64,000 nucleotides of DNA. Source: Burkholderiales bacterium (GTDB lineage: Bacteria > Pseudomonadota > Gammaproteobacteria > Burkholderiales > Casimicrobiaceae). The stretch spans positions 60,505 to 124,504 of the forward strand of contig JBDHRR010000001.1 of NCBI GenBank assembly GCA_039807685.1, in the 5' to 3' direction. Below, piece after piece: positions 22,304 to 39,372 of the stretch. Made by a program: the position numbers and the translations under genes. How positions within the stretch are numbered: position 1 is the first letter of the stretch; the number at the start of each line of letters is the position of its first letter. The notes below the pieces were generated by a model. The model was not told the DNA's origin, ran no database searches, and saw only the letters and a program-made list of their open reading frames with translations.

Positions 22304-22771
22304 ATGAACGCGCGCGACATCCGTACGCTGCTGCGTAACGACCACGACGAGATCCTCATCCTGGCCCGCGACATGTACGAGTCCGAGAGCGGGGACGAGC
22401 GCCGCGCACTGCTGCGGCAATTGCGGCCGGCGCTCTTCCTGCACGCGCGCGCCGAGGAGCGGGACGTCTACGACGCCCTCCTCGCGCGCGACAACGACGA
22501 GCTCCGGACGCTCGCCTACGAGGGCTACGTCCGGCATGGCATCGTCGACGATCTCGTGGAGAAGCTCGTCAAGAGCCGCAAGACCGAAACCGACGAGTGG
22601 AAGGCGTATGCGAAGGTCCTCTTCGACGTCCTCGAGCAGCGCATCGAGGATGAACGCACGCACCTCCTGCCGGTGCTCGAAGAGATCTTCGACGACGACG
22701 CGCGGGAAGCGATGGGCCGCCGCTTCAATGCGACCAAGGCGCGGCTGTCGATGAAGCTCAAGGCGGCGTAA
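22304..22771 (+). CDS. Hemerythrin/HHE-domain protein (partly degenerate)
   Basis: NDHDEI, HARAEERDVY, VRHGIVD; start may be 22259. Confidence 0.72.
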   Translation: MNARDIRTLLRNDHDEILILARDMYESESGDERRALLRQLRPALFLHARAEERDVYDALLARDNDELRTLAYEGYVRHGIVDDLVEKLVKSRKTETDEWKAYAKVLFDVLEQRIEDERTHLLPVLEEIFDDDAREAMGRRFNATKARLSMKLKAA

Positions 22772-24191
22772 CGGACGCTTCCTCGGCGGGCCGCGCGTGG
22801 ATCGGCACGTTGACCTCGATCAGCGTGCCACCGTCGGGTCGCCGCGAGATCGCGAACTCACCGTGCAGCGCGCGTACGCGCTGGCGCATTCCCGCGATTC
22901 CATGTGACAGCAGGTTGCCCTGCGCATCCTCCGGGATGCCGATCCCGTCGTCCTCGATCAGCAAGATGACGTCGGTAGCCGTGGCGCCGAGGTCGACGCG
23001 CACCGTCTTCGCCCGAGCGTACTTCACGATGTTGGTGAGCGCCTCCTGCAGGATGCGGTAGAGCGCGATTGCGACGTCGGACGGGATCCGGCTATCGTCG
23101 CCCGGCGTGTCGATCGTGCACGCGAGCCCGGCGCGGTCGCAGACCTCGCGGACCTGCCAATCGAGCGCTGCGCTGAGGCCGAGGTTGTCGAGCAGCGTCG
23201 GCCGCAGGTCCTCGATGATCCGCCGCTTGATCTGCACGCCGTCGTCGAGCGCTTTCTGCGCGCGTTCGAGCTTGGCCGTGACCTGCGGCTCGTGGTGCTT
23301 GCGCAGGTAGTCTTCCACCCACGCGATGTCCATCTTCGCGCTCACCAGGATGCCGCCCAATTCGTCGTGGATGTCACGGGCGAGCTTCGACTTTTCGTCC
23401 TCCCGCACGCGTTGCAGGTAGCTCGACAGCTCGGACAGTTCTGCCGTGCGCTGCTCGACCTCGCTTTCGAGGCGTCGCTTGTCCTCGACCATCGTGCGCC
23501 GGCGCGCCTCGCGCTGCTGCGCGTCACGGCGGGCGAGGAGCCACACCACGAGCAGCAGGGCAATGGCGAAGCCGGTCATGATCTGCATGCCGAGGCGGGC
23601 GAAGGCGACGTCGGCAGACCAGCGATTCATGGCGGCCGTGAGCTGCTGCTGCTGCGCGGCGGCCATGCCGTCGACTTCCGCGCGGATGTCGTCCATGGCG
23701 CGCCGGCCGATGCCGGTATCGAGGAGCGCTTGCGCCGCCGAGTCGCCGTTTCGCTTGTACAGCGCGAGCGCCGACTCGAGTTCGGCGAGTTTCTGGCCGA
23801 CCAGGCCGTTGAGCTTGGAGAGCGCATCGCGCTCCTGCGCGGTTCCGTACGTCACCAGCATTTCGCGCAACCGGTTGAAGGTGCCGCCGATCTTCGGCAG
23901 TGCATTGTTGTACGGCGTGAGATATTCCACCTTTCCAGTGAGGAGATAGCCGCGCTGCCCGGTCTCGGCATCGACCACGAGTGCGAGCGCCTCGTGCAAC
24001 GACGCCTGCAGTTCGAGCGCCGCGGCGATCTGCCGGTTGGCCACTTCGAGTCGCCGATACCCGAGTTCGGCGTACACGGCGATGGCGATCGACGCGATCA
24101 TGCCGAGGACGAGCGGGGCGACGAGCTTCAGCGGGAGAACGTGCTTCACGGGTATGGGCAGGTGCGCGACGGCATCGTTGCCGCAGCGCAA
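22758..24191 (-). CDS. CHASE3-domain sensor histidine kinase (HisKA_3)
   Basis: DAETGQRGYLLTGKVEYLTPY (CHASE3); LARDIHDELGG (H-box); LYRILQEALTNIVKY, EDDGIG, HGIAGMRQR. Confidence 0.9.
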   Translation of the reverse strand: MRCGNDAVAHLPIPVKHVLPLKLVAPLVLGMIASIAIAVYAELGYRRLEVANRQIAAALELQASLHEALALVVDAETGQRGYLLTGKVEYLTPYNNALPKIGGTFNRLREMLVTYGTAQERDALSKLNGLVGQKLAELESALALYKRNGDSAAQALLDTGIGRRAMDDIRAEVDGMAAAQQQQLTAAMNRWSADVAFARLGMQIMTGFAIALLLVVWLLARRDAQQREARRRTMVEDKRRLESEVEQRTAELSELSSYLQRVREDEKSKLARDIHDELGGILVSAKMDIAWVEDYLRKHHEPQVTAKLERAQKALDDGVQIKRRIIEDLRPTLLDNLGLSAALDWQVREVCDRAGLACTIDTPGDDSRIPSDVAIALYRILQEALTNIVKYARAKTVRVDLGATATDVILLIEDDGIGIPEDAQGNLLSHGIAGMRQRVRALHGEFAISRRPDGGTLIEVNVPIHARPAEEASVTPP

Positions 24192-24672: not shown

Positions 24673-27195
24673 TCAATCGCCGAGGGCGAGGGCGAACGCG
24701 GCTTCGAGATCCATTGCCTCGCCTTCGGCGCGCAGGCGCGCGATCTCGGCCGGCGCCATGGCCTGCGCGAGTTCTGCCGCGAGCCTTGCGTGGACGCGCA
24801 GTTCGCCACGCTGGCGCAGGATCTCCCGTGCGGCGTGTGCCGCATCGCTGCAGCCGCCGATGCGCGCGGCATCGGCGAGTCGGCCGGTGCGTGCCGCGCG
24901 CAGCGCGAGGTGGTCGAGGAGCTGAGGGGCGAGTCCGTTGTCGCGACAGGGTGGGTGCGCGTCGTGCGCCACGCGCAGCGCGGCCGCGAGGTCGCCACGC
25001 TCGACCAGCATGCCGATCCGATTGATCAGACACAGCGCCATGGCGGTACCGCCTGCCATGTCGGGCATCCCGCGCAGCGTCGTCATGACCTCGTGGTTGG
25101 CCACCAGCGCGCGGTCGAGGTCGCCCGCCAGCCACGCCATTTCGGCGACGTTGCTCTGCAGCAGCGCGGCGACGCGCGTGACGCCGGTGCTGCGGCACAG
25201 GGCGATCGCCTGCTCGCTCGTGGCCAGCGCGCCCTCGGCATCATCGCGGACCGACATCATGTAGGCGACCGCTCCGAGGTAGGCGATGCGCGAGCGCGTC
25301 TGCGTCGAGCCTTCGAGGAGGCGCGCCGCCTCGGCGAGCGCGGCGTCGGCCTCGGCGAGCCGGTTGGCGTAGACGAGCGGATAGGCGCCACTCACCAGCG
25401 CATAGGCAAGCCCTTCGCGGTCGCCGGCAGCCCGTTGGGCCGCGATCGCCTCGGCGAATGCGTCGATCACCACGGTCAGCGACGACACCTCGGCCAGCAT
25501 CGCTTGCGCCAGGGCGAGCCGCGCGCGATCGCGCGCTGAAGTCGTGTGATCCGCCCGCGCCAGCGCATGCGCGATCCACTCGCGTGCCTCGTTGCGGTCG
25601 GCGAGATTGTTGACGAAGAGCCGCACCGCGACTGCCGCGAGGGTGATGCCGAGCGCCGCATCACCACCGCCGAGCGCCCAGGCGAGGGCGGCCCGCACGT
25701 TGCCGAGTTCGGGTGTGCATGCGGCGTGCCACTCGGCGTCCGACATGCCCTGCCAGCGGTCGAATATCTCGCTGAAGAGGTCGCGATAGTGCTCCGCGTG
25801 ACGCCGCTGCACGTCGGTCGTTTCGCCTGCTTCGGCGAGCCTTTCCAGCGCGTAAGCGCGCGTCGTCTGGTGCAGGTGGTAGCGCGGCAAGCCGCTGCCG
25901 CCGCTGGCGACGACGAGCGAGCGTTTCTCGAGACGGGCGAGCACGTCGACCGCGGCATGCGCATCGATCGCCGGATCGGCAACCACGGCGGCGATCCCGG
26001 CGAGCGTCGCGCCATCGACGAAGACCGCCATGCGTCGCAGCACGCTCCGCTCGTCCTGCGCCAGGAGGTCGTAGCTCCAGTCGAGGACGGTGCGCAGCGT
26101 CTGGTGATGCCGGGTGGACGTTGCCGTGGTCCTCGTCAGCAGCCGGAAGCGGTCGTCGAGGCGCGCCGCGATCTGCTCGATCGACAGCGTTTGCATCCGG
26201 GCAGCGGCGATTTCGAGTGCCAGGGGCATGCCGTCGAGGTCGATGCACAGTTGCGCCACCAGCGGCGCGGAGGCGGTGGTCAGCGCGAAGTCCGGCTGCT
26301 GCTGGCGGGCGCGCGCGACGAACAGGCGCGCGGCGTCGCTGCGGGCGACGGTCTCGGCGTCGGCACCGGGCGCGGGCAGTGTCAGCGGGTCGAGCCGGTA
26401 CGTCCGCTCCTGGGCAAGATCGAGTGGCTCGCGGCTGGTGGCGAGGATTTTCAACCGTGGGGCGCGCTCGATGAGCGTCGCCACGAGGTCAGCGCTGGCG
26501 GCGCGCACGTGCTCGCAGTTGTCGATGACGAGGAGGGCGCAGCGCGCGGCGAGGTACCCCGCGATGGCCTCCGACAGCACCTGCGCTCCCTGGCGGCGGA
26601 TTCCCAGCACCTGGGCCACGGTGTCGGCGACGCGAGCCGGGTCGGTCACGTTCGCGAGTCCGATGAACCAGATCCCGTCGGGGTACGCATCCGCCTGCCG
26701 TGCGGCCAGTTCCACGGCGAGGCGGGTCTTGCCGCTGCCGCCGGCGCCGACGATCGTCAGGACGCGCGCCGCCCGCAGCTCCCGCGCGATCTCGTCCTGC
26801 TCGCGTTCGCGACCGATGAACGAGGTCGTGGCGGCCCTGAGGTTGGTGTGCGCCACGCGGCTCGATGCGGGCGCGGCATCCGCGGACGTCACCGGTCCCA
26901 CGAACCGGTAACCGCGCCACGGCACCGTCTCGATCCACTTCGCGGCACCCGGCACCGCCTTGAGTGCCCTGCGGATCGCGGAGATCTGTACCGCGAGGTT
27001 GCTCTCCTCGACGACAGCGTCGCGCCACGCCGCATCGAGGATATCCGCCTTGGCGACCATCTCCGGCGCGTGCCGGACGAGCATCGCCAGCACGGCAACC
27101 GCGCGCGGTCCGAGCGGAAGCGACGTCCCGGCGTGGCTCAGAAGCGCGGCGTCGACGTCGAGGCGCAGCGGTCCGAGGTCGAAAATTCGGGTCAT
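24673..27195 (-). CDS. OmpR-type winged helix plus STAND NTPase plus TPR-like regulator
   Basis: N-terminal LGPRAVAVL...VEESNLAVQISAIRRAL...IETVPWRGYRF; Walker A GAGGSGKT; Walker B LLVIDNCEH; LDGMPLALEIAAAR; helical C-terminus. Confidence 0.88.
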   Translation of the reverse strand: MTRIFDLGPLRLDVDAALLSHAGTSLPLGPRAVAVLAMLVRHAPEMVAKADILDAAWRDAVVEESNLAVQISAIRRALKAVPGAAKWIETVPWRGYRFVGPVTSADAAPASSRVAHTNLRAATTSFIGREREQDEIARELRAARVLTIVGAGGSGKTRLAVELAARQADAYPDGIWFIGLANVTDPARVADTVAQVLGIRRQGAQVLSEAIAGYLAARCALLVIDNCEHVRAASADLVATLIERAPRLKILATSREPLDLAQERTYRLDPLTLPAPGADAETVARSDAARLFVARARQQQPDFALTTASAPLVAQLCIDLDGMPLALEIAAARMQTLSIEQIAARLDDRFRLLTRTTATSTRHHQTLRTVLDWSYDLLAQDERSVLRRMAVFVDGATLAGIAAVVADPAIDAHAAVDVLARLEKRSLVVASGGSGLPRYHLHQTTRAYALERLAEAGETTDVQRRHAEHYRDLFSEIFDRWQGMSDAEWHAACTPELGNVRAALAWALGGGDAALGITLAAVAVRLFVNNLADRNEAREWIAHALARADHTTSARDRARLALAQAMLAEVSSLTVVIDAFAEAIAAQRAAGDREGLAYALVSGAYPLVYANRLAEADAALAEAARLLEGSTQTRSRIAYLGAVAYMMSVRDDAEGALATSEQAIALCRSTGVTRVAALLQSNVAEMAWLAGDLDRALVANHEVMTTLRGMPDMAGGTAMALCLINRIGMLVERGDLAAALRVAHDAHPPCRDNGLAPQLLDHLALRAARTGRLADAARIGGCSDAAHAAREILRQRGELRVHARLAAELAQAMAPAEIARLRAEGEAMDLEAAFALALGD

Positions 27196-27407: not shown

Positions 27408-28028
27408 CTAGCCCGGCGCGATGCCGGCGTGGGATCCAGCCGATTCCACGAGCTGGATGAGTTGCGCCGGCGAGCGGGCGCCGAGCTTGCGCATCGCTCG
27501 CGAGCGGTGGACCTTCACCGTGCTCTCGGTGCACGCGAGGTCCGCCGCAATCTGCTTGTTGAGGAGTCCGCCGGCTACCCGAGTGAGAACCGCCCGCTCG
27601 CGCTGCGTGCAACGTGCCAGGAGGTCGTGCGCGCGGGCGGCGTGACGGGCATCGGCGTGACTCGTGATCGCGCGGGTCGCCGCCGCCTCGATCGCCGCGA
27701 TGAGCGTGCCGTCGTCGGTCGGCGATGGCAGCACGTCGATGACGCCGGCGCGCATCGCGCGCACCACGAAGCGCAGGTCGACTCCCCGATATACGACGAT
27801 CACGGCAGCGCCGATCGCGCACAGCCGCTGGCAGAGCTGCGTATCCACTTCGGGTGAGCTGTCGTCGACGTCGATCACCACGCACGTGGGCGTCGCCAGG
27901 GTTGCGGCGGCGCCCCAGACCGCGAGCGAGTCGACCGTGTCGATCCGATAGCGATCCGGAAGCCGGAGGGAGGCGAGGCGGGTGGTTGCGGTGGAGTCGC
28001 AGACGACGCGAATGATCGGAGGCTGCAT
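27408..28028 (-). CDS. FixJ-like LuxR regulator with atypical receiver domain
   Basis: C-terminal TQRERAVLTRVAGGLLNKQIAADLACTESTVKVHRSRAMRKL; VRAMRAGVIDVLPSP where FixJ has GAxDFxxKP. Confidence 0.75.
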   Translation of the reverse strand: MQPPIIRVVCDSTATTRLASLRLPDRYRIDTVDSLAVWGAAATLATPTCVVIDVDDSSPEVDTQLCQRLCAIGAAVIVVYRGVDLRFVVRAMRAGVIDVLPSPTDDGTLIAAIEAAATRAITSHADARHAARAHDLLARCTQRERAVLTRVAGGLLNKQIAADLACTESTVKVHRSRAMRKLGARSPAQLIQLVESAGSHAGIAPG

Positions 28029-28219
28029 GGCTGGGCCGGGACACCGCCGCGCTTGGGGCGGCGTCGGTAGTCGAGCAAACGATTGCCGGCGCCACGCGAC
28101 GTGGCCGCGGCGGCTTCGGCGATGCCCCGCACGATGCGGCAAAGCCGTCGAAAAATCCTGAAGAATTCCTGAAAATGCCGCGCAAGACGGCGAAGCGGCG
28201 GCCCGCGGCCGCCGTGCGG

Positions 28220-29260
28220 TCATCGCGGCGGCTCGGATCGCGCTGCGGTCGATCCGCGCGGCGGCCGTGTTGGCGTCGGTGCCCGCGATGCGCGGGCGCC
28301 CCCGGCGACGATTCCCAGCGTCATGACGAGGAGGGTAGCAACGACGTTGTGCAGGGTCGCCGCCACGAGCGGACGGATACCGATCGAGGTCGCGGCGCCG
28401 ATGACCACCTGCGCGGCAACGAGCACCACCAGCCACACCGCGAGTCGACGCCGCGTCGCGCGCAGGCGCCATGCCAGCAGGCCAACCGCGAGCGCAAACG
28501 CCAGCGCGACGATGCGGTGCGCAACCTGCAGTCCTTGCCGGGCGCCGGCATCCAACGCGGGCGACGCTTGCCACGGATCGAATGCCGCGACGCTCGGTCG
28601 CGCGCCGCTCATGCACAGCGGCGTGGCACAGGCGTCGATCGCGTGCCGGGCGCCGATCATCGTGCCGCTGTACGCGAGGAGGGCGACGAGCGCCAAGGCC
28701 ACGAGCGCGCTGCGGGTGATCGCGGCGCCGGCCGGCGCGCTGGCGTCGACGGCGGGCGAGCCCGCTTCCCCGCGGCGGTGCAACGCTGCCGCGACCCACC
28801 CGAGGACAGCGGTCAGGAGGAGCCCGCCGACGAGGTTGCCGAGCGTCACCAGTGGCAGGTCGTGCGGGGTATAGCGACCCAACCACGCGAGGAAGGCGGT
28901 CACGGTCACTGCCACGACGGCGGCGACGCGTCCCGAGACGGCGAGCGACGTCCAGCCGAGCACGGTCACGACGAGAACGAGAACGCCGACGGTCGTCGCG
29001 CTCACCCGGTGCAGCGCGCGGGCGCTGCGCACGCCGGGGAGATCGTCGGTCTTCGCGGTGACCGCAGCCGGCGGGTGGGACGTGGTGCCGGGAGCGGGGC
29101 TGGCGGCGATGCCCGGCGCTGCGGCGGTCGCATGCGCGGTCCGATAGCACGCCGGCCAATCGACGCAGCCCACCCCGTTCTGCGCATGACGGATGAAGGC
29201 GCTCGACGCGGTGATGCACACCGTGAGCAGCGCCGCGACGAGCGCGACGAGCCGGATCAT
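28220..29260 (-). CDS. ctaA: COX15/CtaA (heme A synthase)-family protein with altered catalytic residues
   Basis: GCVDWPAC loop, second Cys pair CATPLC, ALHR, VAHR, TLHN; the second substrate-site His appears as N (TLGNL). Confidence 0.75.
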   Translation of the reverse strand: MIRLVALVAALLTVCITASSAFIRHAQNGVGCVDWPACYRTAHATAAAPGIAASPAPGTTSHPPAAVTAKTDDLPGVRSARALHRVSATTVGVLVLVVTVLGWTSLAVSGRVAAVVAVTVTAFLAWLGRYTPHDLPLVTLGNLVGGLLLTAVLGWVAAALHRRGEAGSPAVDASAPAGAAITRSALVALALVALLAYSGTMIGARHAIDACATPLCMSGARPSVAAFDPWQASPALDAGARQGLQVAHRIVALAFALAVGLLAWRLRATRRRLAVWLVVLVAAQVVIGAATSIGIRPLVAATLHNVVATLLVMTLGIVAGGARASRAPTPTRPPRGSTAARSEPPR

Positions 29261-30693
29261 CGGGCCGGACGCGCCGCGATCACGCTCGCCAGCACCACCC
29301 ACACGAAGAGGACGCCGCCGGCGATGGCGAGCAAACCGCCCAGCCCCATCAAGCCCATGCCCGCCACCTCCTGCGTGGTGCGCAGCGTCTGCTCGGCACC
29401 CGCCACCTTGCGCTGCACGCCGTAGCCGCCGGACCACAGCAGGCCCAGGATGTGCAGCAATTGCCCACCGCCGTACAGCCACGGCTGCCAGTCGGCGAGC
29501 CGTCCGCGGACCTCACGAAAGCCCAGGCGCGGCAGGAGCGCGTACGCCAACCCCATGAGCGCCAGCGTCACGCCGACGATCGAGCCGTGGTAGTGCGCCG
29601 GAATCCGCACGTCGGAGCCCTGGATGAGGAAGCCGATCAGGCCCCCGGCCGCGAACAGCAGTAGCGAGGCAACGAGCGCCGCGCGCAGCGGTCGCGTCAC
29701 CGGGGTCGTCGCCCGCTGCCGCACCAGCGCCACCGCGAGTGCCAGCACCATCGGCAGGATGGCGAGCCCGCCGCCGAAGCGCATGAGCCAGGTCATCATC
29801 CTGCGATACTCGACCGAGACCACGGTCCAGTTGAGATAGATGAGCGGCGCGACGAATACCGAGACGAGACCGATCGCGTAGACGAGGACGACCACGCGCG
29901 GACTCAGCGGCAGCGGCGAGCCGGCAAGCGTGGCGAGCCACGCCCAGGCGACCAGCATGAGGAGCGTCCATGTGAACTGGATGACGTGCCCGGGGCCCCA
30001 GAACAGGAGTTCGTAATAGGTGAGCGCGTCGACGTCGCGCGGAACCTCGGCGAGCGACCACGCCAGCGCCAGCAGCGCAACCGCGCTCGATACCGCGGCG
30101 GCCTTGAGGCCGAAGCGCAGCGCATCGGCCCCGTCGAGGCGCAGGCTCATGCGCGCCGGCGCGACGAACGAGCGCAGGGTGAGGAGCAGGAAGCCCGCGC
30201 CCAGCACGACGAGTCCGGCGAGGAAAGTGTCATTGTCGAGGACCGGCACGTAGTTCGACATCACCGGTACGGCAGCGCCGGTGAAGGGGGCCGCCGCCAT
30301 CAGTGCGGTGCCGGCGGCGGTCACCGCGAGCGCGAGCCACCCCAGCCAGACGAAACGCGGCGACGTATCGAGTGTCCACAGCATGCCCGCCATCGACACG
30401 AACCAGACCAGCACCGACAGGTCGACGTGAACGACGAGCGCGACCCGGAAGAAATCCCCTGCCGGCACGATTCCGGCGAAGAACGGCGTGCGGGCGAGCA
30501 CCAGCAGGATCGAGAACACGCCGGCGCCGATCAGCGCCGCGACACCCAGCAGCAGCCAGCCGGTGGCGATCGAGCGCTGCGCGGTGGCGGGAATCGCGAT
30601 CTCGAAGCGGGCGTCGCGTATCCCGCGCGCGACGCCGCCGAGCACGCGCGCCGGCTCCGCCGATGAGGTGCTGCTCAGCGCGCGCTGCGGCAT
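29257..30693 (-). CDS. Divergent heme-copper-superfamily subunit I paralog lacking the His-His pair
   Basis: About 12 TM; VVHVDLSVLVW (helix II), FWGPGHVIQF (helix VI), PAHYHGSIVG (helix X); no HH in the helix VII region. Confidence 0.72.
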   Translation of the reverse strand: MPQRALSSTSSAEPARVLGGVARGIRDARFEIAIPATAQRSIATGWLLLGVAALIGAGVFSILLVLARTPFFAGIVPAGDFFRVALVVHVDLSVLVWFVSMAGMLWTLDTSPRFVWLGWLALAVTAAGTALMAAAPFTGAAVPVMSNYVPVLDNDTFLAGLVVLGAGFLLLTLRSFVAPARMSLRLDGADALRFGLKAAAVSSAVALLALAWSLAEVPRDVDALTYYELLFWGPGHVIQFTWTLLMLVAWAWLATLAGSPLPLSPRVVVLVYAIGLVSVFVAPLIYLNWTVVSVEYRRMMTWLMRFGGGLAILPMVLALAVALVRQRATTPVTRPLRAALVASLLLFAAGGLIGFLIQGSDVRIPAHYHGSIVGVTLALMGLAYALLPRLGFREVRGRLADWQPWLYGGGQLLHILGLLWSGGYGVQRKVAGAEQTLRTTQEVAGMGLMGLGGLLAIAGGVLFVWVVLASVIAARPAR

Positions 30694-30744: not shown

Positions 30745-31251
30745 TCATCGGATGACGACGCCGCCTTGATCGGGCACGAAGTCGATGAGGACGACCTGTC
30801 CGGGGGCGAGCTTGATCCGACGCTCCGCCTCGTGATTGAAGCCCTTGACGCGAACGCTGTCGTTCACCTGCACGCGCAGGAGATGCTCGCCGGCGGGAAT
30901 CGGCTGCCGGCGATAGCCGCTCGCCGCGCCGTCGCGACGCAGCCCTGCCGGCGCGAACGTCTCGTCCAGCACCAGCTTGCCGTCGAGATCGACGCGCACG
31001 TGCACCGGCGAACGCTCGCGCGGGCAGTCCATCTGCGCGCGCAGTTGTGGCGACATCTTGGCGAGCTCCTCGGGACTGCGCGGACGGCAGTCGGTGGTGA
31101 GCTGGCCGGGCGCGCGGAACGACAGCCGCAGGAGCGCCTGATCGGGCGGCAGGTGCTGGTACGCGGGCGCCGTCGAGAAATAGCCGATGAAAGCAGCGAA
31201 CAGGATGTAGAGGATCGCCTGTCCGCCGTAGCGCAACGCCGAGTTAGCCAT
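30745..31251 (-). CDS. Hypothetical membrane-anchored protein with two Cys
   Basis: Single N-terminal TM (QAILYILFAAFIGYF), TTDCRPR and MDCPRER, beta-rich C-terminus; overlaps the upstream gene's stop. Confidence 0.75.
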   Translation of the reverse strand: MANSALRYGGQAILYILFAAFIGYFSTAPAYQHLPPDQALLRLSFRAPGQLTTDCRPRSPEELAKMSPQLRAQMDCPRERSPVHVRVDLDGKLVLDETFAPAGLRRDGAASGYRRQPIPAGEHLLRVQVNDSVRVKGFNHEAERRIKLAPGQVVLIDFVPDQGGVVIR

Positions 31252-32836
31252 GGATACTGTCTCCGAGCGGGTGGCGGGTCGTCCCGCCGTCTGCCTTTCT
31301 TGTCTCGCCCGCGGGGAGCCGCGCGCGGAACGATTCGATGTCGCTGTCGAGTGCGGCGCCCTGTTCGCGGCCGGCATGGATCACCGCGAGCCGCCTCCGA
31401 TCGACGCTGCGGCGCAGCCACGGCGGACGCAGGCCGGCGATGCGCTCGAGCGTCCATCGTACCCCGAAGCGGTATTCGCAATCGCCCATCGCGCACGTTG
31501 CCACCACGACCCCGGCCGCGCCCGCGCGCAAGCCGTAGTCGACGAAGGTCGGCGGCAGCATGCCGGTACACGGCAGTCCGATGACGATCGTGCCGGGTTG
31601 CCTGGTCGGCTGCGCACCGTGGTGACAGGCGAAGACCAGGAGTGAGCCGCTCGCGTCGGGTCGGCCGAATGCAGTGTCGATCGCTGCGCGCACCGTATCC
31701 ACCGTGTAGTACGGCAGGTCGATGCCACTCACCAAGGCGGTGACCGAACGGAACGGCACCGCCGACGGGCAGGCGCCCGCGCAGATCCCGCAGGAGGCAC
31801 AGCGATCGGCGTCGACCACCGCGATCTCGCCCCTGCCGCTCGGATGCGGCGCCATGGCGATCGCGGCGTAGGGGCAATCCTCGAAGCAGCGCCGGCAGCC
31901 GTTGCAATACAGCGGGACGACCACCGCCGGCGCCGGTCGCGGCGTGCGACCGAGCCACGGCAGCACCGCGAGCAGCAGCGTCAGGCCTACGCTCGCGATC
32001 CAGACCGCCTCCGGCGAAGTGGTGTAGATGGCCGGCAACGGCGCGAGATAGAACCAGTCGATCGGCAGGTCGGTAGGGATTCGCGCGAGGTCGGCGGGCG
32101 GCCCCGACACCGCCGGTACGACGAGCGACAGCGCGACGAGCGCGGCGAGACTCGCCAGCGCCACGCGCCGCGTGGTGCCGGTCTGTGGGCGGGTGAGCCT
32201 TTGCACGTGTGCCCACATGGTAAGCAGCAGCACGAGCGGCAGCCCGATGTGCAGGAAGGCAACCAGCGAGAACAGGCGGTCGGACACCGCGCTCTCGGCG
32301 ATGAAATTGCGCACCAGCGCCGGCCCGAAGCCGGGAAGGACGCCGAACCATTCGGTGGTGGCGGTGGCGACGAACTGCGCGAGCGTGTCCCACACCATCC
32401 AGTAGCCGACCACACCGGCGGCGACCGCGAGCCAGAGCGTGGGGATGCCGCTCACCCAGCTGTACCAGCGAAAGCCGCGGAAGCGCCCGAGCAGCAATTC
32501 GCGCAGGAGATGCACGATGATCACCACCACGAAGGCGTCCGACGCGTAGCGGTGGAGGCTGCGCATCAGCCCGCCGGCCCACCGCTGGCCGTGCGTGAGT
32601 GTCTCGACCGAGGCGTACGCACCGACGACGCTGGTGTCGTAGAAGATGTACAGGTAACCGCCGGTCAACGCGATCAGCCAGAAGAGGTAGAACCCGAGTC
32701 CCCCGAGCTGGCGCAATGGATTGTCGTCGACGCCGCAGAGGCGGTCGAGGGCATGCTCGCCGGCGCGCCACGCGCGCGCCGCCGCGGCGTCGGCCGCGAC
32801 CGCGGCATCGGGAGTCGAAGACAGGTTGAACGCCAT
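31244..32836 (-). CDS. Cytochrome b - 2x[4Fe-4S] - FlpD/MvhD-type Fe-S fusion protein
   Basis: Four heme His (SLHRY, IVHLLR, FLHIG, WAHVQ); IDWFY; CNGCRRCFEDCP and CASCGICAGACP; FACHHG, LPCTGMLPP, TCAMGDCEY. Confidence 0.85.
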   Translation of the reverse strand: MAFNLSSTPDAAVAADAAAARAWRAGEHALDRLCGVDDNPLRQLGGLGFYLFWLIALTGGYLYIFYDTSVVGAYASVETLTHGQRWAGGLMRSLHRYASDAFVVVIIVHLLRELLLGRFRGFRWYSWVSGIPTLWLAVAAGVVGYWMVWDTLAQFVATATTEWFGVLPGFGPALVRNFIAESAVSDRLFSLVAFLHIGLPLVLLLTMWAHVQRLTRPQTGTTRRVALASLAALVALSLVVPAVSGPPADLARIPTDLPIDWFYLAPLPAIYTTSPEAVWIASVGLTLLLAVLPWLGRTPRPAPAVVVPLYCNGCRRCFEDCPYAAIAMAPHPSGRGEIAVVDADRCASCGICAGACPSAVPFRSVTALVSGIDLPYYTVDTVRAAIDTAFGRPDASGSLLVFACHHGAQPTRQPGTIVIGLPCTGMLPPTFVDYGLRAGAAGVVVATCAMGDCEYRFGVRWTLERIAGLRPPWLRRSVDRRRLAVIHAGREQGAALDSDIESFRARLPAGETRKADGGTTRHPLGDSIHG

Positions 32837-32879: not shown

Positions 32880-33731
32880 TCAGGCGCGGCGCGTCCGCCG
32901 CAACTCGCGCAGCGTGAACCAGGCGATTGCCCCGAGCGTGGTCAAGCCGGCGAAGATCTCGAAGAACAGCGAATAGTTGAGACGGTAGCCGCCGCCTTGC
33001 GGATCGTACACGGTACAGTACAGGATCACCTTGTCCCAGACGTTGCCCAGTGTGAGTTCGCGCGAGGCCTGCCCCGAGCGCAATTCCTTGAGCGGTTGCA
33101 CGAGCATCGGCAGGTCGAAATTCTCGCCGTAGACCTGGCGGTAGATGACGCCTTCGGCATCGACGATGGTGACCTGCGTGACGTGATCGAAGCCCTTGGC
33201 GGTGGCCTCGTAGACGAAGCCCAGGTTGGCGGTGAGTGCCTCGACCTGCGTCGGATCGGGGCTCAGGAAATGCCAGCCGGGCTCATCGATGCGGTTCTGG
33301 CGCTTGAAGGCGGCCATTGCCGCCGGCGTGTCAAAGGGTTGATTGAAGCCGATCGACACCACGGTGAAGGCGTCGTCGCCCAAGGCCCGGCGCGCCTCGC
33401 GCACGGCCTGCGCGAGGAACTGCGTGGCGACCGGACAGGCCTGGAAGCAGCCGGTGTACACGAGGCTGACCAGCAGGGGTCGTCCCTGGTAGTCGCGCAG
33501 GCGAACGTCCTTGCCGTTGCTGTCGCGCAGGCGGATGTCGGCAACCGGCCGGCCGATCGCCGCCTGGCTCGTCGTGACGGCGCGCTGGTAATCGGGCGCC
33601 CGGGGTGCCTTGGCGCTGTCTTCTGCCGTCGCCCGCGCCGGCAGCGCGACCATGCAGGCGGCGGCGCCGGCCGCGAGCGAGGTGATCAGGATGCGGGCGA
33701 GCGGTGCGCGGCGGGAGCTGCGACTCGGCAC
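32880..33731 (-). CDS. SCO-family copper chaperone with C-terminal membrane extension
   Basis: YTGCFQACP (CxxxC) and GFDHVTQ His; C-terminal TM FFEIFAGLTTLGAIAWF. Confidence 0.88.
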   Translation of the reverse strand: MPSRSSRRAPLARILITSLAAGAAACMVALPARATAEDSAKAPRAPDYQRAVTTSQAAIGRPVADIRLRDSNGKDVRLRDYQGRPLLVSLVYTGCFQACPVATQFLAQAVREARRALGDDAFTVVSIGFNQPFDTPAAMAAFKRQNRIDEPGWHFLSPDPTQVEALTANLGFVYEATAKGFDHVTQVTIVDAEGVIYRQVYGENFDLPMLVQPLKELRSGQASRELTLGNVWDKVILYCTVYDPQGGGYRLNYSLFFEIFAGLTTLGAIAWFTLRELRRTRRA

Positions 33732-33735
33732 GGCG

Positions 33736-34602
33736 TCAGGCCCCGAGCGAGGACCTCATCCAGCCGTCGGCGATGGTTCCCATGAGGAGCAGCGAGAGCT
33801 GGACGAGCGAGGCGTGGAAGCTTGCCAGCGCATTGGCCCGATTCGGCGTGCGGGCCAGCAGCCAGGCACGCCACACGAAGAGCGCACTGCCGGTCGCTGC
33901 ACATGCGAGGTAGAGCCAACCCGGGCCGAAGAATGCAAGCGCGAGCGAACAGCCGACCATGACGAGCGCGTGCCAGAAGATCGCCCAGGCCGCGAAGCGG
34001 TCGCCCTTGACCACCGGCAGCATCGGCACCCCGACGCTCGCGTAGTCGTCGCGGCAGACGATCGCGAGACTCCAGAAGTGCGGCGGCGTCCACAGGAACA
34101 GCACGAGGGCGAGGACGAGCGCCTCCGGCGAAAGCTGCGGGGAGACCGCCGCCGCGCCGGCCAGCACCGCGAAGCTGCCGGCCAGCCCTCCGATCACGAT
34201 GTTCCACGCGCTGCGACGCTTGAGCCAGACGGTGTACACGATCGCGTAGACGAAGGCGCCCAGGAACGTGTACAGCGCCGCGGCCGCGTTGGTGGCGAGC
34301 CACGCCGCCGCCACCGCGATTCCGGTCAGCGCGACGATGAGTACCAGCCAGCCGCGATGGTGCCGCATGTGCCCGCTCACGAACGGGCGGCGACGCGTCC
34401 GCGTCATCCGCGCGTCGAGATCGACCTCGTAGAACTGGTTGAAGGCACCTGCGGCCGCCGACGACAGCAGCACGGCAAGCGTCAGGACCACGCCTTGCCA
34501 GGGGGCGAGGGTGCTGCCGGGCGACACCATCAGCCCGGCGACCGCGGTGAGCGCGATCGCCACGCCGATGCGCAGCTTGAAGAGATTGAGCAGCGCCTTC
34601 AT
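33736..34602 (-). CDS. ctaB: Protoheme IX farnesyltransferase (heme o synthase)
   Basis: LFKLRIG, NQFYEVDLDARMTRTRRRP, YTVWLKRR, LWTPPHFWSLA, DYASVGVPMLP. Confidence 0.93.
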   Translation of the reverse strand: MKALLNLFKLRIGVAIALTAVAGLMVSPGSTLAPWQGVVLTLAVLLSSAAAGAFNQFYEVDLDARMTRTRRRPFVSGHMRHHRGWLVLIVALTGIAVAAAWLATNAAAALYTFLGAFVYAIVYTVWLKRRSAWNIVIGGLAGSFAVLAGAAAVSPQLSPEALVLALVLFLWTPPHFWSLAIVCRDDYASVGVPMLPVVKGDRFAAWAIFWHALVMVGCSLALAFFGPGWLYLACAATGSALFVWRAWLLARTPNRANALASFHASLVQLSLLLMGTIADGWMRSSLGA

Positions 34603-34678: not shown

Positions 34679-36385
34679 CTAGCTCAGACCCCAGACCGTC
34701 GACAGGTACTTCCAGTTGACGAAGTAGTACAGCACGAAGGCGACCAGGAACACCATCGCGAACACGAAGGTACCCGGAACGCCCCAGCCGCCGCCGTGGC
34801 CGCCATCCTCGACGAGCGAGACCTCCACCGGCAGGCGCAGCGGCGTCACCTTGGTCGAGTAGGCACCCGAATCCAGTCGCTTGCCGAAGAGGATGGTGCC
34901 GACCGTCACGGTGATGTACATCACGCCGCCGATGACCGCGATGATGCCGCCGATCGCGAAGATGGCGATCATGAGCAGTGCCGTTCCCGGGAACTCGTAG
35001 GGGAATGCGGCGCCGGCGAAGGTGATGTCCCAGCTGCGACGCGGCACGCCGAGCGTGCCGGCGCCCATCATGGCGAGCGTGAACACACCCATGCCGAGAC
35101 CGAAGACGTACGGCTGCAGCTTCGCCCAACCCGGGAGGATCAGCTCGCGATTGAAGAGCGTGGGCAGCAGGAAGTACGTCAGCGCCATGAAGGCGAGCGT
35201 GGTACCGATCACCACCGTGGCGTGGAAGTGCCCCGGCACGTAGATCGTGTTGTGGATGATCATGTTGAGCTGCTCGGTGCCCATCATCACGCCCGAGATG
35301 CCGCCCAGGAAGCCGAAGCCGATGAGCGAGATGAACATCCCCGAGAACACCGGATTGCTCCACGGCGCCTTGCGCAGCCACTCGAAGAGCCCCTTCGTGT
35401 AACCCTTCGCCCGCTGCGCGGCTTCGATCGCGCCCGGCACGGTGAGGCCGTGCAGCATCGACGCCAGCACCGCGAGGTACATCGCGTAGCTCGTGTTGAA
35501 CACCTTCCACTCGGTGCCCACCGCCGGGTCGGCCAGGATGTGGTGCGCCGACGCGAGTTGCAGGAACAGGATGTAGAGGAGGAACGCGGAGCGGCTCACC
35601 CGCTCGGACATCGGCTTCGCGCCGAAGACGATGGCGGCGATCGCATACCACACCGCGATGTGCGCCGACACGTTGATCTGCTGCGACGAGTGACCGAACG
35701 CCCACCAGATCACGCGGTACATCGCCGGATCGATGTGGCTGATGTATCCCGCCGACCACAGGAAGGTGGGGATGAGGATGATCGCACCCGAGGCGATCGT
35801 GAAGATCGCGATGATGCAGGCGGTGATCGCGCCGAAGGTGACGAGCGGAACCGAGCCCTCGTAGGTCTTCTCGGACTTGGCGATGACGAGCGTACCCAGG
35901 AACACGAAGCAGCCGATGAGCGCGCCGACCGCGAACAGGATGAGGCCCAGGTAGAACGCCGGAATCGCCGGCAGCGGCACGTAGGACGTCATCATCACCG
36001 TCGCGTTGCCGGTGAAGATCGCGACGTTGAAGGTGATGGTGCCGATCACCATCAGCGCCCAGGCGAGCCAGGCGAGTCGCGGGGTGGCGATCCGGCAGCG
36101 CAGCAACGTCGACGAGCAGAAATAGAGGATCGCGATCTCGAAGAAGATGATCCAGACGACCAGCATGTCGAGACCGTGCGCGGTCAGGTACATGTAGAAG
36201 TTGTCGGCGTCGAGCAGGTGGATCGCCTGCCAGCGCGTGAGCGTGATCAGCAGGGCGAGAACTCCGCCGATCAGCAGCGCGACGACGGCGGCGACGGCGT
36301 TGGCCTTGATGAGCAACTCGGCCGACTTGTGGAATTGCAGCCCCGTGCGGGGGCAGATGCGGTACTGCGGGACGGCGGTGGCCAT
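34679..36385 (-). CDS. B-family-derived heme-copper subunit I; probable eNOR-type nitric oxide reductase catalytic subunit
   Basis: All six His present (LTAHG; GHSSQQ; SAHHI; GHFH). Helix VI reads H-S-S-Q-Q (35678-35692) instead of HPxxY, so there is no His-Tyr cross-link. Confidence 0.8.
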   Translation of the reverse strand: MATAVPQYRICPRTGLQFHKSAELLIKANAVAAVVALLIGGVLALLITLTRWQAIHLLDADNFYMYLTAHGLDMLVVWIIFFEIAILYFCSSTLLRCRIATPRLAWLAWALMVIGTITFNVAIFTGNATVMMTSYVPLPAIPAFYLGLILFAVGALIGCFVFLGTLVIAKSEKTYEGSVPLVTFGAITACIIAIFTIASGAIILIPTFLWSAGYISHIDPAMYRVIWWAFGHSSQQINVSAHIAVWYAIAAIVFGAKPMSERVSRSAFLLYILFLQLASAHHILADPAVGTEWKVFNTSYAMYLAVLASMLHGLTVPGAIEAAQRAKGYTKGLFEWLRKAPWSNPVFSGMFISLIGFGFLGGISGVMMGTEQLNMIIHNTIYVPGHFHATVVIGTTLAFMALTYFLLPTLFNRELILPGWAKLQPYVFGLGMGVFTLAMMGAGTLGVPRRSWDITFAGAAFPYEFPGTALLMIAIFAIGGIIAVIGGVMYITVTVGTILFGKRLDSGAYSTKVTPLRLPVEVSLVEDGGHGGGWGVPGTFVFAMVFLVAFVLYYFVNWKYLSTVWGLS

Positions 36386-36396
36386 GGTTCCCCCGA

Positions 36397-36936
36397 TTAC
36401 TTGACGTAGAGCCGCGAGACCATCTTGTGATGGCCGATGCCGCAGAATTCGTTGCAGACGATCGCGTACTGGCCCGAGCGATTGGGCGTGACCGTCACCA
36501 CGTGCTGGTAGCCGGGAAGGACCTGGATGTTGATGTTCTCAGGCTGCAGCGAGAATCCGTGCTGGTAATCCATCGAGCTCAGGTTGAGGCGATAGCTCTT
36601 GCCCTTCTCGAGTTCGAGGATCGGCCACCAGTCCCACAGGCGCGCGATGAGGTAGATGTCGCTGCCCGCGGGCGGCGCCACCACCGGCACCTTGCCCTCG
36701 CCCTCGGTGCGCACGGTGTACTTGTCGACCATGTCCTGCGCGGCCTTGGCGAAGAGTTCGGGCTTGACGCGGTACGTTTCCGATGACAGGTTCTGCTTAC
36801 CGAACACGTGCCAGTACGGCATCATGAAGAACATGATCATGCACCACACGAAGGCGATGACGATCCAGATGATCTCGATCTTGTCGACCGGTTGCTTCCA
36901 CCAGATGCGTTGCGGCGGGGGCAGTATGGCGCTCAC
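36397..36936 (-). CDS. CuA-containing subunit II (single TM, ba3-type architecture)
   Basis: DYQHGF...CNEFCGIGHHKM CuA motif; one N-terminal TM. Confidence 0.92.
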   Translation of the reverse strand: MSAILPPPQRIWWKQPVDKIEIIWIVIAFVWCMIMFFMMPYWHVFGKQNLSSETYRVKPELFAKAAQDMVDKYTVRTEGEGKVPVVAPPAGSDIYLIARLWDWWPILELEKGKSYRLNLSSMDYQHGFSLQPENINIQVLPGYQHVVTVTPNRSGQYAIVCNEFCGIGHHKMVSRLYVK

Positions 36937-37452: not shown

Positions 37453-39372
37453 TTGCTCAAGATAGTCCAAGGCTTCCTGCAGTGGTTTTTCCTGCGGATG
37501 GAGGCGATCGGCAACCGGGTATTCGGCGATCGGCTGAACCCGATGTACTACCTGGGCGCGACGAGCTACTGGATGTTCTGGATCGTCGTCGCCAGCGGCC
37601 TGTACGTCTACGTTTTCTACGAGACCGGGGTCGACAAGACATACGCCTCGATGGAGGCGATCACGCACGGGCAGTGGTTCGCCGGCGGCATCATGCGCAG
37701 CGTGCACCGCTACGCGTCCGACGCGATGGTGCTGACCATGCTGCTGCACATGCTGCGGCATTTCGCCTTCGACCGCTATCGCAGCTTCCGCGCCTTCTCG
37801 TGGGTCACCGGCGTGATCGTGCTGTGGCTCGTCTACGCCTCGGGCGTGAACGGCTTCATGCTGCCCTGGGACAAGCTCGCGCAGTTCGTGGTGATCGGCA
37901 CCACCGAATGGCTCGATTCGCTGCCGGTGTTCAACGGCATCCTGACGCGCAATTTCATCACCCCCGACGCGATCACCGACCGGCTTTTCTCGCTCCTGTC
38001 GTTCCTGCACATCGGCATTCCGCTGGTGGTGATGCTCGCGCTGTGGATCCACACGCAGCGCGTGCCGCGCGCGTCGCAGATTCCGCCTCGCCGTCTCGCC
38101 TTCGGACTGCTCGCGATGCTGCTCGTGCTGTCGCTCGTGAAGCCGGTGGTGAGCCAGGCGCCCGCCGATTTCAACACGGTGCCGATGCGGCTCGACTTCG
38201 ACTGGTTCTATCTCACCGTCTATCCGCTCATCTACGCCTGGGATCCGCTCAAGCTGTGGATCCTCTGTGCCGGCGTCACCGTACTGCTGCTGGCGTTGCC
38301 GTGGCTGCCACCGGCGCGCAGCGGCAAGGGCCGCGCGTATCACCTGACGGCGCACCCGGGTCGCCAGGGCGCACCGGTGCGCGTCGGCGAGACGCTGCTC
38401 GACGCGGGGCTGCGCGCGGGCATCGCGCTGCCTTACGAATGCCGCTCTGGCGGCTGCGGCGTGTGCAAGGCGACGATGATCGGCGGCGAGGTCGAGATGT
38501 CGGGCTACCAGCCCTCCGCGCTCTCCGCCGAGGAGCGCAGCGCGGGTCGCATCCTGCTGTGCTGCGCCCGCGCGCTGTCCGATGTCGAGTTCGAATACGA
38601 GGCGGATGCGGCCGCCCGCGGCACGAAGATCGAGACCTACGAGACGCGCGTCGAGCGACTGGCGCCGCTCGCCCACGACGTGATGCTCGTCGCGCTGCGC
38701 CTGCCCGAGGGACGCAAGATCGAGTTCGAGGCCGGCCAGTACGTGAACGTCGTGCTCGACGGCGGCGCACGACGCAGCTACTCGTTCACGACGCCGTCGG
38801 GCGCCACCGACCTCATCGAACTGCACGTGCGGCTGATGCCTGGCGGGTTGTTCACCTCGCGCGTCTTCGAATCGATGAAGGTGGGCGATCCCATCACCAT
38901 CGAGGGCCCGGTGGGGTCGTTCGTGCTGCACGAGCCGAGCGAGAAGCCGCTCATCTTCGTCGCCGGCGCGACCGGCTTCGCGCCGGTCAAGAGTCTCCTC
39001 GAACAGGCTTTCCACATGGGGATCCAGCGGCCGCTCTACCTGTACTGGGGCGTGCGCCGTCGCCGCGATCTCTACCTCACCGAGTTGCCGGAACGCTGGG
39101 CGCGCGAGCACCCCAATTTCCACTTCGTGCCCGTGCTCTCGGAGGCGGCCCCCGAGGACGACTGGCACGGCCGCACGGGCCTCGTCCACGAGGCGATCCT
39201 CGCCGATTTCCCGAACCTGTCGGGCTTTGCGGTCTACGCCTGCGGTTCGGTGCGCATGGTCGCCGCGGCGCGGCCGGCGTTCGTCACGCAGGGCCTGCAC
39301 GAGGATGCGTGCTACTCCGACGCGTTCATCCCCGCCGGTGGCGCCGAGCCGGGAGTCGCGCCGCCCGCGTAA
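37453..39372 (+). CDS. Cytochrome b - [2Fe-2S] ferredoxin - FAD/NAD(P)H reductase fusion
   Basis: Heme His SVHRY, LLHML, FLHIG, WIHTQ; FDWFY; CRSGGCGVC...LLCC; RSYS (FAD); AGATGFAP and YACG (NAD). RBS GGAGGA before TTG. Confidence 0.88.
   Translation: MLKIVQGFLQWFFLRMEAIGNRVFGDRLNPMYYLGATSYWMFWIVVASGLYVYVFYETGVDKTYASMEAITHGQWFAGGIMRSVHRYASDAMVLTMLLHMLRHFAFDRYRSFRAFSWVTGVIVLWLVYASGVNGFMLPWDKLAQFVVIGTTEWLDSLPVFNGILTRNFITPDAITDRLFSLLSFLHIGIPLVVMLALWIHTQRVPRASQIPPRRLAFGLLAMLLVLSLVKPVVSQAPADFNTVPMRLDFDWFYLTVYPLIYAWDPLKLWILCAGVTVLLLALPWLPPARSGKGRAYHLTAHPGRQGAPVRVGETLLDAGLRAGIALPYECRSGGCGVCKATMIGGEVEMSGYQPSALSAEERSAGRILLCCARALSDVEFEYEADAAARGTKIETYETRVERLAPLAHDVMLVALRLPEGRKIEFEAGQYVNVVLDGGARRSYSFTTPSGATDLIELHVRLMPGGLFTSRVFESMKVGDPITIEGPVGSFVLHEPSEKPLIFVAGATGFAPVKSLLEQAFHMGIQRPLYLYWGVRRRRDLYLTELPERWAREHPNFHFVPVLSEAAPEDDWHGRTGLVHEAILADFPNLSGFAVYACGSVRMVAAARPAFVTQGLHEDACYSDAFIPAGGAEPGVAPPA

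Follow-up and report, generated by a model that had tools for sequence, protein, structure and literature searches.

A CtaA paralog with a remodeled substrate pocket, paired with a subunit-I paralog in eNOR gene clusters

We analyzed a 64,000-nucleotide stretch of DNA (the window; Burkholderiales bacterium, GenBank assembly GCA_039807685.1, contig JBDHRR010000001.1, positions 60,505 to 124,504) and, within it, a gene at positions 28220 to 29260 whose product resembles the heme A synthase (HAS) CtaA. The gene closes a minus-strand cluster assigned to the NO reductase eNOR and directly follows a COX1-like open reading frame (ORF), which we call X1. An earlier note on this DNA had described a CtaA variant without the catalytic Glu and one substrate-heme His, and both losses were borne out, as four independent alignments placed Arg81 and Asn142 at the two positions. 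We refer to proteins with this pair as R/N, to canonical proteins with Glu and His as E/H, and to proteins with His84 and Asn142 but any residue at position 81 as x-H-N. The gene and the features of its product are as follows (positions in the window).

28220..29260, minus strand: CtaA/COX15-fold paralog of the R/N clade, 346 aa, eight transmembrane (TM) helices (Pfam, AlphaFold2, Foldseek, conserved M-I-R start)
29006..29020, minus strand: TM2 motif R81-A-L-H84-R85, canonically E-x-x-H-R (alignments, codon mapping)
28835..28837, minus strand: N142 at the TM4 substrate-heme His position, H123 in Bacillus subtilis (alignments)
28889..28891, minus strand: L124 in TM3, an invariant Gln in beta-type and type-2 canonical CtaA (conservation, hhalign)
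28349..28519, minus strand: C-terminal bundle H248-R249 (TM6) and H304-N305 (TM8), equivalent to the heme b ligands H216/H278 and unchanged (alignments)
29147..29167, minus strand: Cys pair C32/C38 of extracellular loop 1 (ECL1), kept (alignments, conservation)
28613..28630, minus strand: Cys pair C211/C216 of ECL3, kept (alignments, conservation)

Gene, fold and key residues

The ORF call (protein P0001) runs on the minus strand from an ATG at 29260 to a TGA at 28220, and the start codon overlaps the stop of X1 as ATGA. A 420-aa version with a GTG start was rejected, as about 100 homologs begin at the conserved M-I-R. The match to Pfam PF02628 (COX15-CtaA) reached 82.4 bits against a cutoff of 29.9 and covered profile positions 3-320 of 322, which places the protein in the superfamily; a scan of NCBIfam gave no model matching it. 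The AlphaFold2 model, for which a 46-sequence alignment (A1) served as input, had a predicted local distance difference test score (pLDDT) of 87.9 and a predicted TM-score (pTM) of 0.86 and showed eight long helices. They form two pseudosymmetric four-helix bundles, the arrangement of the CtaA fold, and the internal repeat was also seen in the alignment. The only significant Foldseek matches in the PDB were the B. subtilis (6a2j) and Aquifex aeolicus (8aw5) enzymes, with probability 1.0 and TM-scores of 0.58-0.65. Sequence searches of the PDB were less informative: the paralog as a single sequence gave a marginal match only, so that a family profile was required, and phmmer with the type-2 CtaA of the same genome gave only spurious methyltransferase matches.

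HAS enzymes carry a catalytic Glu in the TM2 motif E-x-x-H-R (E57 in B. subtilis, E166 in yeast), two substrate-heme His (H60 and H123), a His pair for the cofactor heme b (H216 and H278) and, in type 1, a Cys pair in ECL1. The R/N paralog breaks with the first two features and keeps the others. Arg81 stands in the place of the Glu; H84 is kept and the H123 position is Asn142; H248 and H304 provide the cofactor pair; and the ECL1 pair C32/C38 is 99% conserved in the clade. H60/H123 are held to bind the substrate heme o and H216/H278 the cofactor heme b (PMC12808453). The Glu is essential in yeast Cox15, where it is proposed to stabilize a carbocation on the methyl being oxidized, and the four His are likewise essential (PMC13213658). 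A 2026 survey describes the catalytic Glu as "strictly conserved" (PMC12808453).

The multiple alignment with type-1 and type-2 CtaA that the note had proposed as a check gave Glu and His in the R81 and N142 columns of all canonical proteins. It was made with hmmalign on more than 100 CtaA homologs from the fetched loci, using a hidden Markov model (HMM) built from R/N, beta-type and type-2 sequences, and all R/N-type proteins had R and N at both columns. In the comparison of the family profile with the A. aeolicus HAS, "vARalHR" pairs with "WIEQTHR", putting R81 at the catalytic Glu, and a gap-free TM4 comparison with the closest canonical relatives sets PAVVTAHLIGG against PAVTLGNLLGG. Aligning A1 with an alignment of eight canonical sister proteins (A2), hhalign gave a probability of 99.94% and E = 1e-36, with R81 opposite E, L124 opposite Q, and N142, H248 and H304 each opposite H. 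Two alignments were set aside. The B. subtilis TM2-TM4 fragment was misplaced by hmmalign onto the C-terminal half owing to the internal repeat, and TM4 was therefore mapped via the sister clade and hhalign; MAFFT --auto misaligned the type-2 sequences at columns 81 and 142, and type 2 was compared by HMM alignment alone.

The note had also counted both Cys loops and three His. These stand, as C32/C38, C211/C216 and H84/H248/H304, but the narrow subclade that holds the window gene additionally conserves H25 and H133. The Cys loops of B. subtilis CtaA gate heme entry and exit. Of the residues particular to the narrow subclade, H25 (29186-29188) lies at the end of TM1, H133 (28862-28864) in the TM3-TM4 loop motif T-P-H, and C15 (29216-29218) is a TM1 Cys; all three belong to the N-terminal bundle and its periplasmic end. 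In the wider R/N clade, position 25 is Leu and position 133 Ala or Ser. H25, H133 and C15 may offer a metal site or an alternative sixth ligand. The window protein further has Q245 (28526-28528), three residues ahead of the heme b His of TM6; type-2 enzymes likewise have Gln at this position, and most R/N and beta-type CtaA have His (H-x-x-H-R).

The R/N clade and its genomic setting

Among 5.8 billion proteins searched, about 96 close relatives were found, every one with the R/N signature. A profile search of 1.84 billion cluster representatives gave 3820 matches, 306 of them below 1e-30. The best 150 of the 3820 representatives (50% identity clustering) were all x-H-N, and the clade contains more than 140 such clusters. 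Among 239 homologs and representatives, 223 read R-H-N at positions 81, 84 and 142, and within these 239 sequences no protein with N142 had Glu or Asp at position 81. Conservation in the clade (n = 175) was 100% for N142 and L124, 99% for S20, 94% for R81 and 99% for each of H84, H248 and H304, and of the roughly 23 positions conserved most strongly, about 16 fall in the N-terminal half. Comparison with the sister group gave five clade-specific changes (G20S, E81R, Q124L, G125A and H142N), all in the N-terminal (substrate) bundle, and zero in the C-terminal (cofactor) bundle.

In a maximum-likelihood tree of 102 sequences, all 66 R/N proteins fell on one branch (Shimodaira-Hasegawa-like approximate likelihood ratio test, SH-aLRT, 100). 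The branch is nested within the aa3-linked betaproteobacterial E/H CtaA, with type-2 CtaA separate, and the branches inside it are long. The tree and the conservation together indicate that an ordinary type-1.1 CtaA was duplicated once and that the substrate pocket of the copy was then remodeled under continued selection. Judged by these sequence patterns, the R/N paralog is under selection and not decaying, and we read it as a neofunctionalized HAS paralog. We regard the contrary idea of a functionless ctaA duplicate in decay as scarcely credible, even though two residues regarded as essential are lost and the branches of the clade are long: the frame is intact with its start coupled to the upstream gene, the substituted residues are themselves 94-100% conserved across more than 140 clusters at 50% identity, and the synteny is kept across Beta- and Gammaproteobacteria and a second phylum. 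The pseudogene reading was rejected on this conservation.

The R/N paralog does not stand alone in its genomes. The genome of the window has a second CtaA of type 2 on the same contig, 46 kb away (C128:14764-15732), which scores 387 bits on Pfam and has the fully canonical motifs WWEYFHR, TAHLLL, QFDHR and ALHQ; it adjoins a candidate PCuAC-like copper chaperone, as judged from sequence. In 11 of 11 other R/N-bearing genomes we found exactly one R/N gene and one canonical CtaA, of type 2 or beta type, and a close aa3 subunit I was present in 10 of the 11 as well. The R/N gene has a type-2 E/H CtaA as its immediate neighbor in 12 loci, in some of them about 5 bp apart or overlapping. The aa3 cluster of the window's genome is on another contig (C118:6526-8897) and holds SURF1, a gap of about 600 bp, its own ctaB and SCO, with no CtaA where related genomes have the beta-type E/H CtaA. 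The R/N paralog as the only or main HAS of the cell was rejected, as a canonical copy was present in 12 of 12 genomes tested.

In the window, the minus-strand cluster runs in the order subunit II, subunit I, ctaB, SCO, a cytochrome b/Fe-S/FlpD fusion, a small anchored protein, X1 and, last, the CtaA paralog.

36397..36936, minus strand: eNOR subunit II, CuA type (family search)
34679..36385, minus strand: heme-copper oxidase subunit I, assigned to eNOR by operon layout (COX1, 220.6 bits)
33736..34602, minus strand: CtaB/CyoE heme o synthase, the cluster's own copy (TIGR01473, 263.5 bits)
32880..33731, minus strand: SCO1/SenC-type copper chaperone (family search)
31244..32836, minus strand: fusion of cytochrome b, 2x[4Fe-4S] and an FlpD-type domain (family search)
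30745..31251, minus strand: small membrane-anchored protein without a family match, its position conserved in eNOR clusters (family search, synteny)
29257..30693, minus strand: X1, subunit-I-like paralog, 478 aa, translationally coupled to the CtaA paralog (weak COX1 Pfam match, 55.7 bits)
37453..39372, plus strand: divergent fusion of cytochrome b, 2Fe-2S ferredoxin and FAD/NAD(P)H reductase (family search)

The layout matches the eNOR operon of F. straubiae (bioRxiv 10.64898/2026.01.22.701106), and the full eNOR accessory set (eNOR II, eNOR I, ctaB, sco, cytochrome b/Fe-S, anchor and X1) is present, with subunit I assigned to eNOR by layout. The window's subunit I is 70-92% identical to those of 80 loci with the same layout. 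X1 is a subunit-I paralog without CuB/FeB. Ferredoxin and ferredoxin reductase are the electron donors required by eukaryotic Cox15 (PMC13213658), and by analogy the 37453-39372 fusion could feed a HAS instead of, or besides, eNOR. Downstream of the cluster and on the same strand lie a LuxR/GerE-type regulator directly after the paralog (27408-28085, with no receiver-domain match in its N-terminal 150 aa), a regulator with winged-helix and STAND/NB-ARC ATPase domains (24673-27195) and a CHASE3 histidine kinase (22758-24191). The sole terminator-like hairpin, at 27395-27381, comes after the LuxR gene, which may thus be cotranscribed with the cluster.

We surveyed 201 genomes of the same order, in which the top CtaA-like matches form two classes. 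All 11 R/N genes from this survey lie inside eNOR clusters (L023-L033), which have the gene order of the window, and the canonical E/H sister genes examined lie in aa3 clusters of SURF1, CtaA, CtaB and SCO, except in L040, which has no aa3 genes within its 20 kb. A further sample comprised 80 eNOR loci (L043-L122) from Burkholderiales, Rhodocyclales, Hydrogenophilales, Lysobacterales and others, most of them sharing the window layout. Annotation of the longest ORFs by BLAST missed divergent paralogs, and hmmsearch and hmmalign with a home-built profile were used instead. An x-H-N paralog was found in 56 of these 80 loci, 33 of the 38 fully flanked loci among them. The ATGA overlap of X1 and the paralog recurs in the closest relatives of the window, and basal clade members with T or G at position 81 adjoin eNOR II, a type-2 CtaA or both. 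Two apparent X1-CtaA fusions (P0097 and P0059) proved to be out-of-frame artifacts of ORF calling and not Rosetta-stone fusions. In six loci (L095, L099, L100, L103, L107 and L110) a divergent CtaA-like ORF adjoins X1 about 19 kb into the locus; the profile matches its N-terminal half only, with R-H-R ... Y ... N at the key columns, and by this match these ORFs may be half-size or strongly diverged versions.

A second phylum was sampled around the genome that holds L057 (Gemmatimonadota), and 29 of 151 genomes had an eNOR subunit I at 52-69% identity. Of 19 clusters examined there, 16 had neither X1 nor a nearby CtaA homolog, 1 had X1 and a type-2 CtaA, and 2 had X1 followed by an x-H-N paralog. 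These two paralogs (L172:17144-18142 and L173:17414-18409) have S20, L124 and N142, D or G at position 81 and no ECL1 Cys pair; as they share S20, L124 and N142 but vary at 81, the H123N, Gln-to-Leu and Gly-to-Ser changes appear more general than the Arg. Type-2 CtaA was the only CtaA genome-wide in 17 of the 19 second-phylum eNOR genomes, and both exceptions carry the X1-adjacent paralog. L057 itself has a subunit I 80% identical to that of the window, against 52-69% in the other genomes of this sample, and its contig may be mis-binned or recently transferred.

Pooling the fully flanked loci with the second phylum gave 35 loci with paralog and X1, 0 with the paralog only, 3 with X1 only and 19 with neither (P = 2e-12, Fisher test, uncorrected for phylogeny). 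In the pooled loci the paralog never occurs without X1 and eNOR often occurs without the paralog, so the paralog tracks X1 and not eNOR as such. A general requirement of eNOR for the paralog was rejected on its absence from 17 of 19 second-phylum eNOR genomes. The note had suggested that the protein works with the subunit-I paralog next to it, and this synteny, with the ATGA overlap, lends the suggestion strong support.

Possible roles of the paralog and X1

An Arg at the site of the carbocation-stabilizing Glu, together with the loss of one axial His, should abolish the canonical oxidation of heme o, and a pocket with one His lined by Arg and Asn is suited to hold the product, heme a. Cytochrome c oxidase uses a conserved Arg to hydrogen-bond the formyl of heme a. 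X1 and the R/N paralog mirror the normal pair of subunit I and CtaA, with catalytic residues lost and heme ligands kept in both. Our preferred reading, put forward tentatively and on sequence and gene order, is that the R/N paralog would be a noncatalytic receiver and hand-off protein for heme a, acting as the partner of X1 and supplying eNOR. The paralog would no longer oxidize heme o. The canonical CtaA would provide the heme a (heme As, in the case of eNOR), which the paralog would bind through H84 alone, with R81 and N142 contacting the C8 formyl or other polar groups of the bound heme. The five-coordinate, single-His site would favor release, and together with X1 the paralog would pass heme a to eNOR subunit I. 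Heme As occupies both heme sites of eNOR and was the sole heme type found, in a protein whose expression needed micro-oxic conditions (PMC11214002); by which route heme a reaches subunit I has been called an open question (PMC9145763).

Several observations weigh against this proposal. Most second-phylum eNOR genomes lack the paralog, and a role in the hemylation of eNOR is hence dispensable or lineage-specific. About 6% of the clade has G, T, S, N, Q or A at position 81, and the second-phylum members have D or G there, which weakens a specific role of Arg at the formyl. The ECL1 and ECL3 Cys pairs and the heme b cofactor, all kept, are equally expected of an active enzyme, and a pure carrier has no obvious need of a redox cofactor. 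The loci behind the co-occurrence of paralog and X1 share ancestry, and its P value counts them as independent. The binding of heme a, the contact of R81 with the formyl and the hand-off are each steps that we infer from sequence. The heme b-containing chaperone of the note agrees with our proposal in its broad outline: an intact cofactor site stands beside a remodeled substrate site, and a canonical CtaA accompanies the paralog in 12 of 12 genomes, while the chaperone role itself stays conjectural.

The retained heme b site and Cys pairs, both required for HAS activity, also fit a catalytic enzyme with altered chemistry, which would convert heme o (or Os) to heme a (or As) or to an intermediate through another oxidant or another path of electrons; at very low O2, for instance, X1 and the cytochrome b/Fe-S proteins of the cluster could serve as its redox partners. 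Strong purifying selection acts on the N-terminal pocket, its invariant Asn and near-invariant Arg resemble a distal pocket over a five-coordinate heme, the cluster encodes a CtaB of its own as well as two electron-transfer fusions of the cytochrome b/Fe-S kind, and the synthesis of heme a for eNOR during anoxic growth is a puzzle that such chemistry would address (bioRxiv 10.64898/2026.01.22.701106). We nevertheless consider it unlikely, if a serious contender. A canonical E/H CtaA is always present too and often adjacent, and 17 of 19 second-phylum eNOR genomes manage with type-2 CtaA alone. The Glu essential in yeast Cox15 is proposed to stabilize a cationic intermediate, on which an Arg would have the opposite effect, and the purified eNOR, expressed under micro-oxic conditions, contained heme As only (PMC11214002). 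The last two points bear equally on the nonstandard heme proposed in the note, arising for example from a stop at the hydroxymethyl stage: heme As is the only heme in the published eNOR, and Arg at the Glu site argues against the canonical chemistry starting at all. A broader form of the idea, which we hold very doubtful, makes the paralog, X1 and the cytochrome b/Fe-S proteins together an alternative system that forms or supplies heme a where O2 is too scarce for the canonical synthase; it could rely, for example, on a different oxidant or on an Arg/Asn pocket on the distal side of a five-coordinate heme. If true, it would explain how denitrifiers supply eNOR with heme a near anoxia.

The strict co-occurrence and translational coupling with X1 would be expected as well if the paralog were a permanent di-heme (or heme b-only) redox subunit of an X1-based membrane complex, with the HAS fold employed as a cytochrome for electron transfer or the binding of small molecules (NO or O2) and not for moving heme. 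Its bis-His heme b site is intact, a five-coordinate heme, open on one face, could be bound in the second bundle by the one His together with the polar Arg and Asn, and cytochrome b/Fe-S partners are encoded in the same operon. Yet the gating Cys loops, unneeded in a fixed cytochrome, are conserved, the adjacency to canonical CtaA in 12 loci points to heme a metabolism, and we know of no respiratory subunit with the HAS fold; on balance we think such a subunit improbable. That same adjacency, with tandem pairs of type-2 CtaA and R/N paralog some 5 bp apart or overlapping, could instead reflect a noncatalytic regulatory or stabilizing subunit that forms a hetero-oligomer with the canonical CtaA and directs its output to eNOR. 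Oligomerization of HAS is conserved, and the trimer interface of the A. aeolicus enzyme is formed by TM5/6 of the C-terminal bundle, the half that is unchanged here (PMC7327177). In the window and its closest relatives, however, the partner gene is X1, the window genome's canonical CtaA lies 46 kb off, and the strong conservation of the remodeled pocket would go unexplained if only an interface mattered, so that we find this subunit quite improbable. Measured against these alternatives, the receiver and hand-off role remains the reading that we prefer.

Relation to known systems

The closest published description is a row of Table 1 in Degli Esposti et al. 2021, which lists for class B/type 1.1 CtaA "Substitution E57K and H123N" (PMC8239418), with betaproteobacteria (Ca. 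Accumulibacter) and Acidiferrobacteraceae as taxa and Sulfurifustis as example (PMC8239418). By its sequence features, this subtype is almost certainly the same clade as the R/N paralog: it combines both Cys pairs with Asn at H123 and a basic residue in place of E57 and occurs in Beta- and Gammaproteobacteria, all of which hold for the window protein. The R/N clade differs from the row in having Arg (94%), not the listed Lys, at position 81, and in the additional changes G20S and Q124L. The same classification also has a type 1.0 group, from CFB and Verrucomicrobia, that is often E57N. The row on the R/N-like subtype gives the substitutions only, without a function, a link to eNOR or to a subunit-I paralog, or mention of a coexisting canonical CtaA, and a literature search gave no other paper mentioning the E57/H123 substitution pair. 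The earlier note had overlooked this row, along with the single origin and size of the clade and the second, canonical CtaA of the genome.

Relative to the literature searched, four points are new: the CtaA homolog of eNOR operons is the form without Glu and His; R/N proteins make up a single large clade with extra pocket changes; the R/N paralog always accompanies a canonical CtaA (12 genomes tested); and it tracks X1 and not eNOR. A large clade under selection breaks two rules of HAS, the invariant Glu and the four invariant His, and keeps the rest, and it is tied to a partner, X1, itself without a catalytic metal site. Both are encoded in clusters of an NO reductase that produces N2O and requires heme a in each of its two heme sites. 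These results correct the view in the literature that eNOR operons simply encode an O2-dependent HAS as their CtaA homolog, a view that had served to argue that eNOR denitrifiers are obligately aerobic; the F. straubiae preprint raises the related puzzle of O2-dependent heme a synthesis under anoxia (bioRxiv 10.64898/2026.01.22.701106). The transfer of heme a from the synthase to subunit I has long been a question across all heme-copper enzymes, human disease of COX15 and SURF1 included, and a natural pair of pseudoenzymes that keeps only the heme sites would provide a tractable handle on this step.

Among the characterized relatives, the aa3-linked betaproteobacterial CtaA (type 1.1, E/H) is the sister or parent group, with about 30% identity over the full length and an hhalign probability of 99.9%. 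It shares with the R/N paralog the Cys pairs, the length and, in most members, the TM6 motif H-x-x-H-R, and differs in E-x-x-H-R, the TM4 His, the TM3 Gln and the TM1 Gly and in its place in aa3 oxidase clusters, not eNOR clusters. The B. subtilis CtaA (6A2J) and A. aeolicus HAS (8AW5) have in common with it the bis-His heme b site of the C-terminal bundle and the Cys pair of ECL1, but identity is only 12-14% and the equivalents of E57 and H123 are missing from the paralog, in which HAS activity is, we argue, unlikely. Type-2 CtaA/Cox15 belongs to the same superfamily and often adjoins the R/N paralog; it lacks the Cys pairs, has a long ECL1 and all five canonical residues, and the genome's own copy scores 387 bits on Pfam against 82 for the paralog. 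Surf1/Shy1, the heme a-binding assembly factor of aa3 oxidases, is unrelated to the R/N paralog in fold and sequence, and in the order-survey loci its gene occurs in the aa3 clusters and in none of the eNOR clusters. The analogy that we propose is purely functional: like Surf1, the R/N paralog may be an accessory membrane protein placed between HAS and subunit I.

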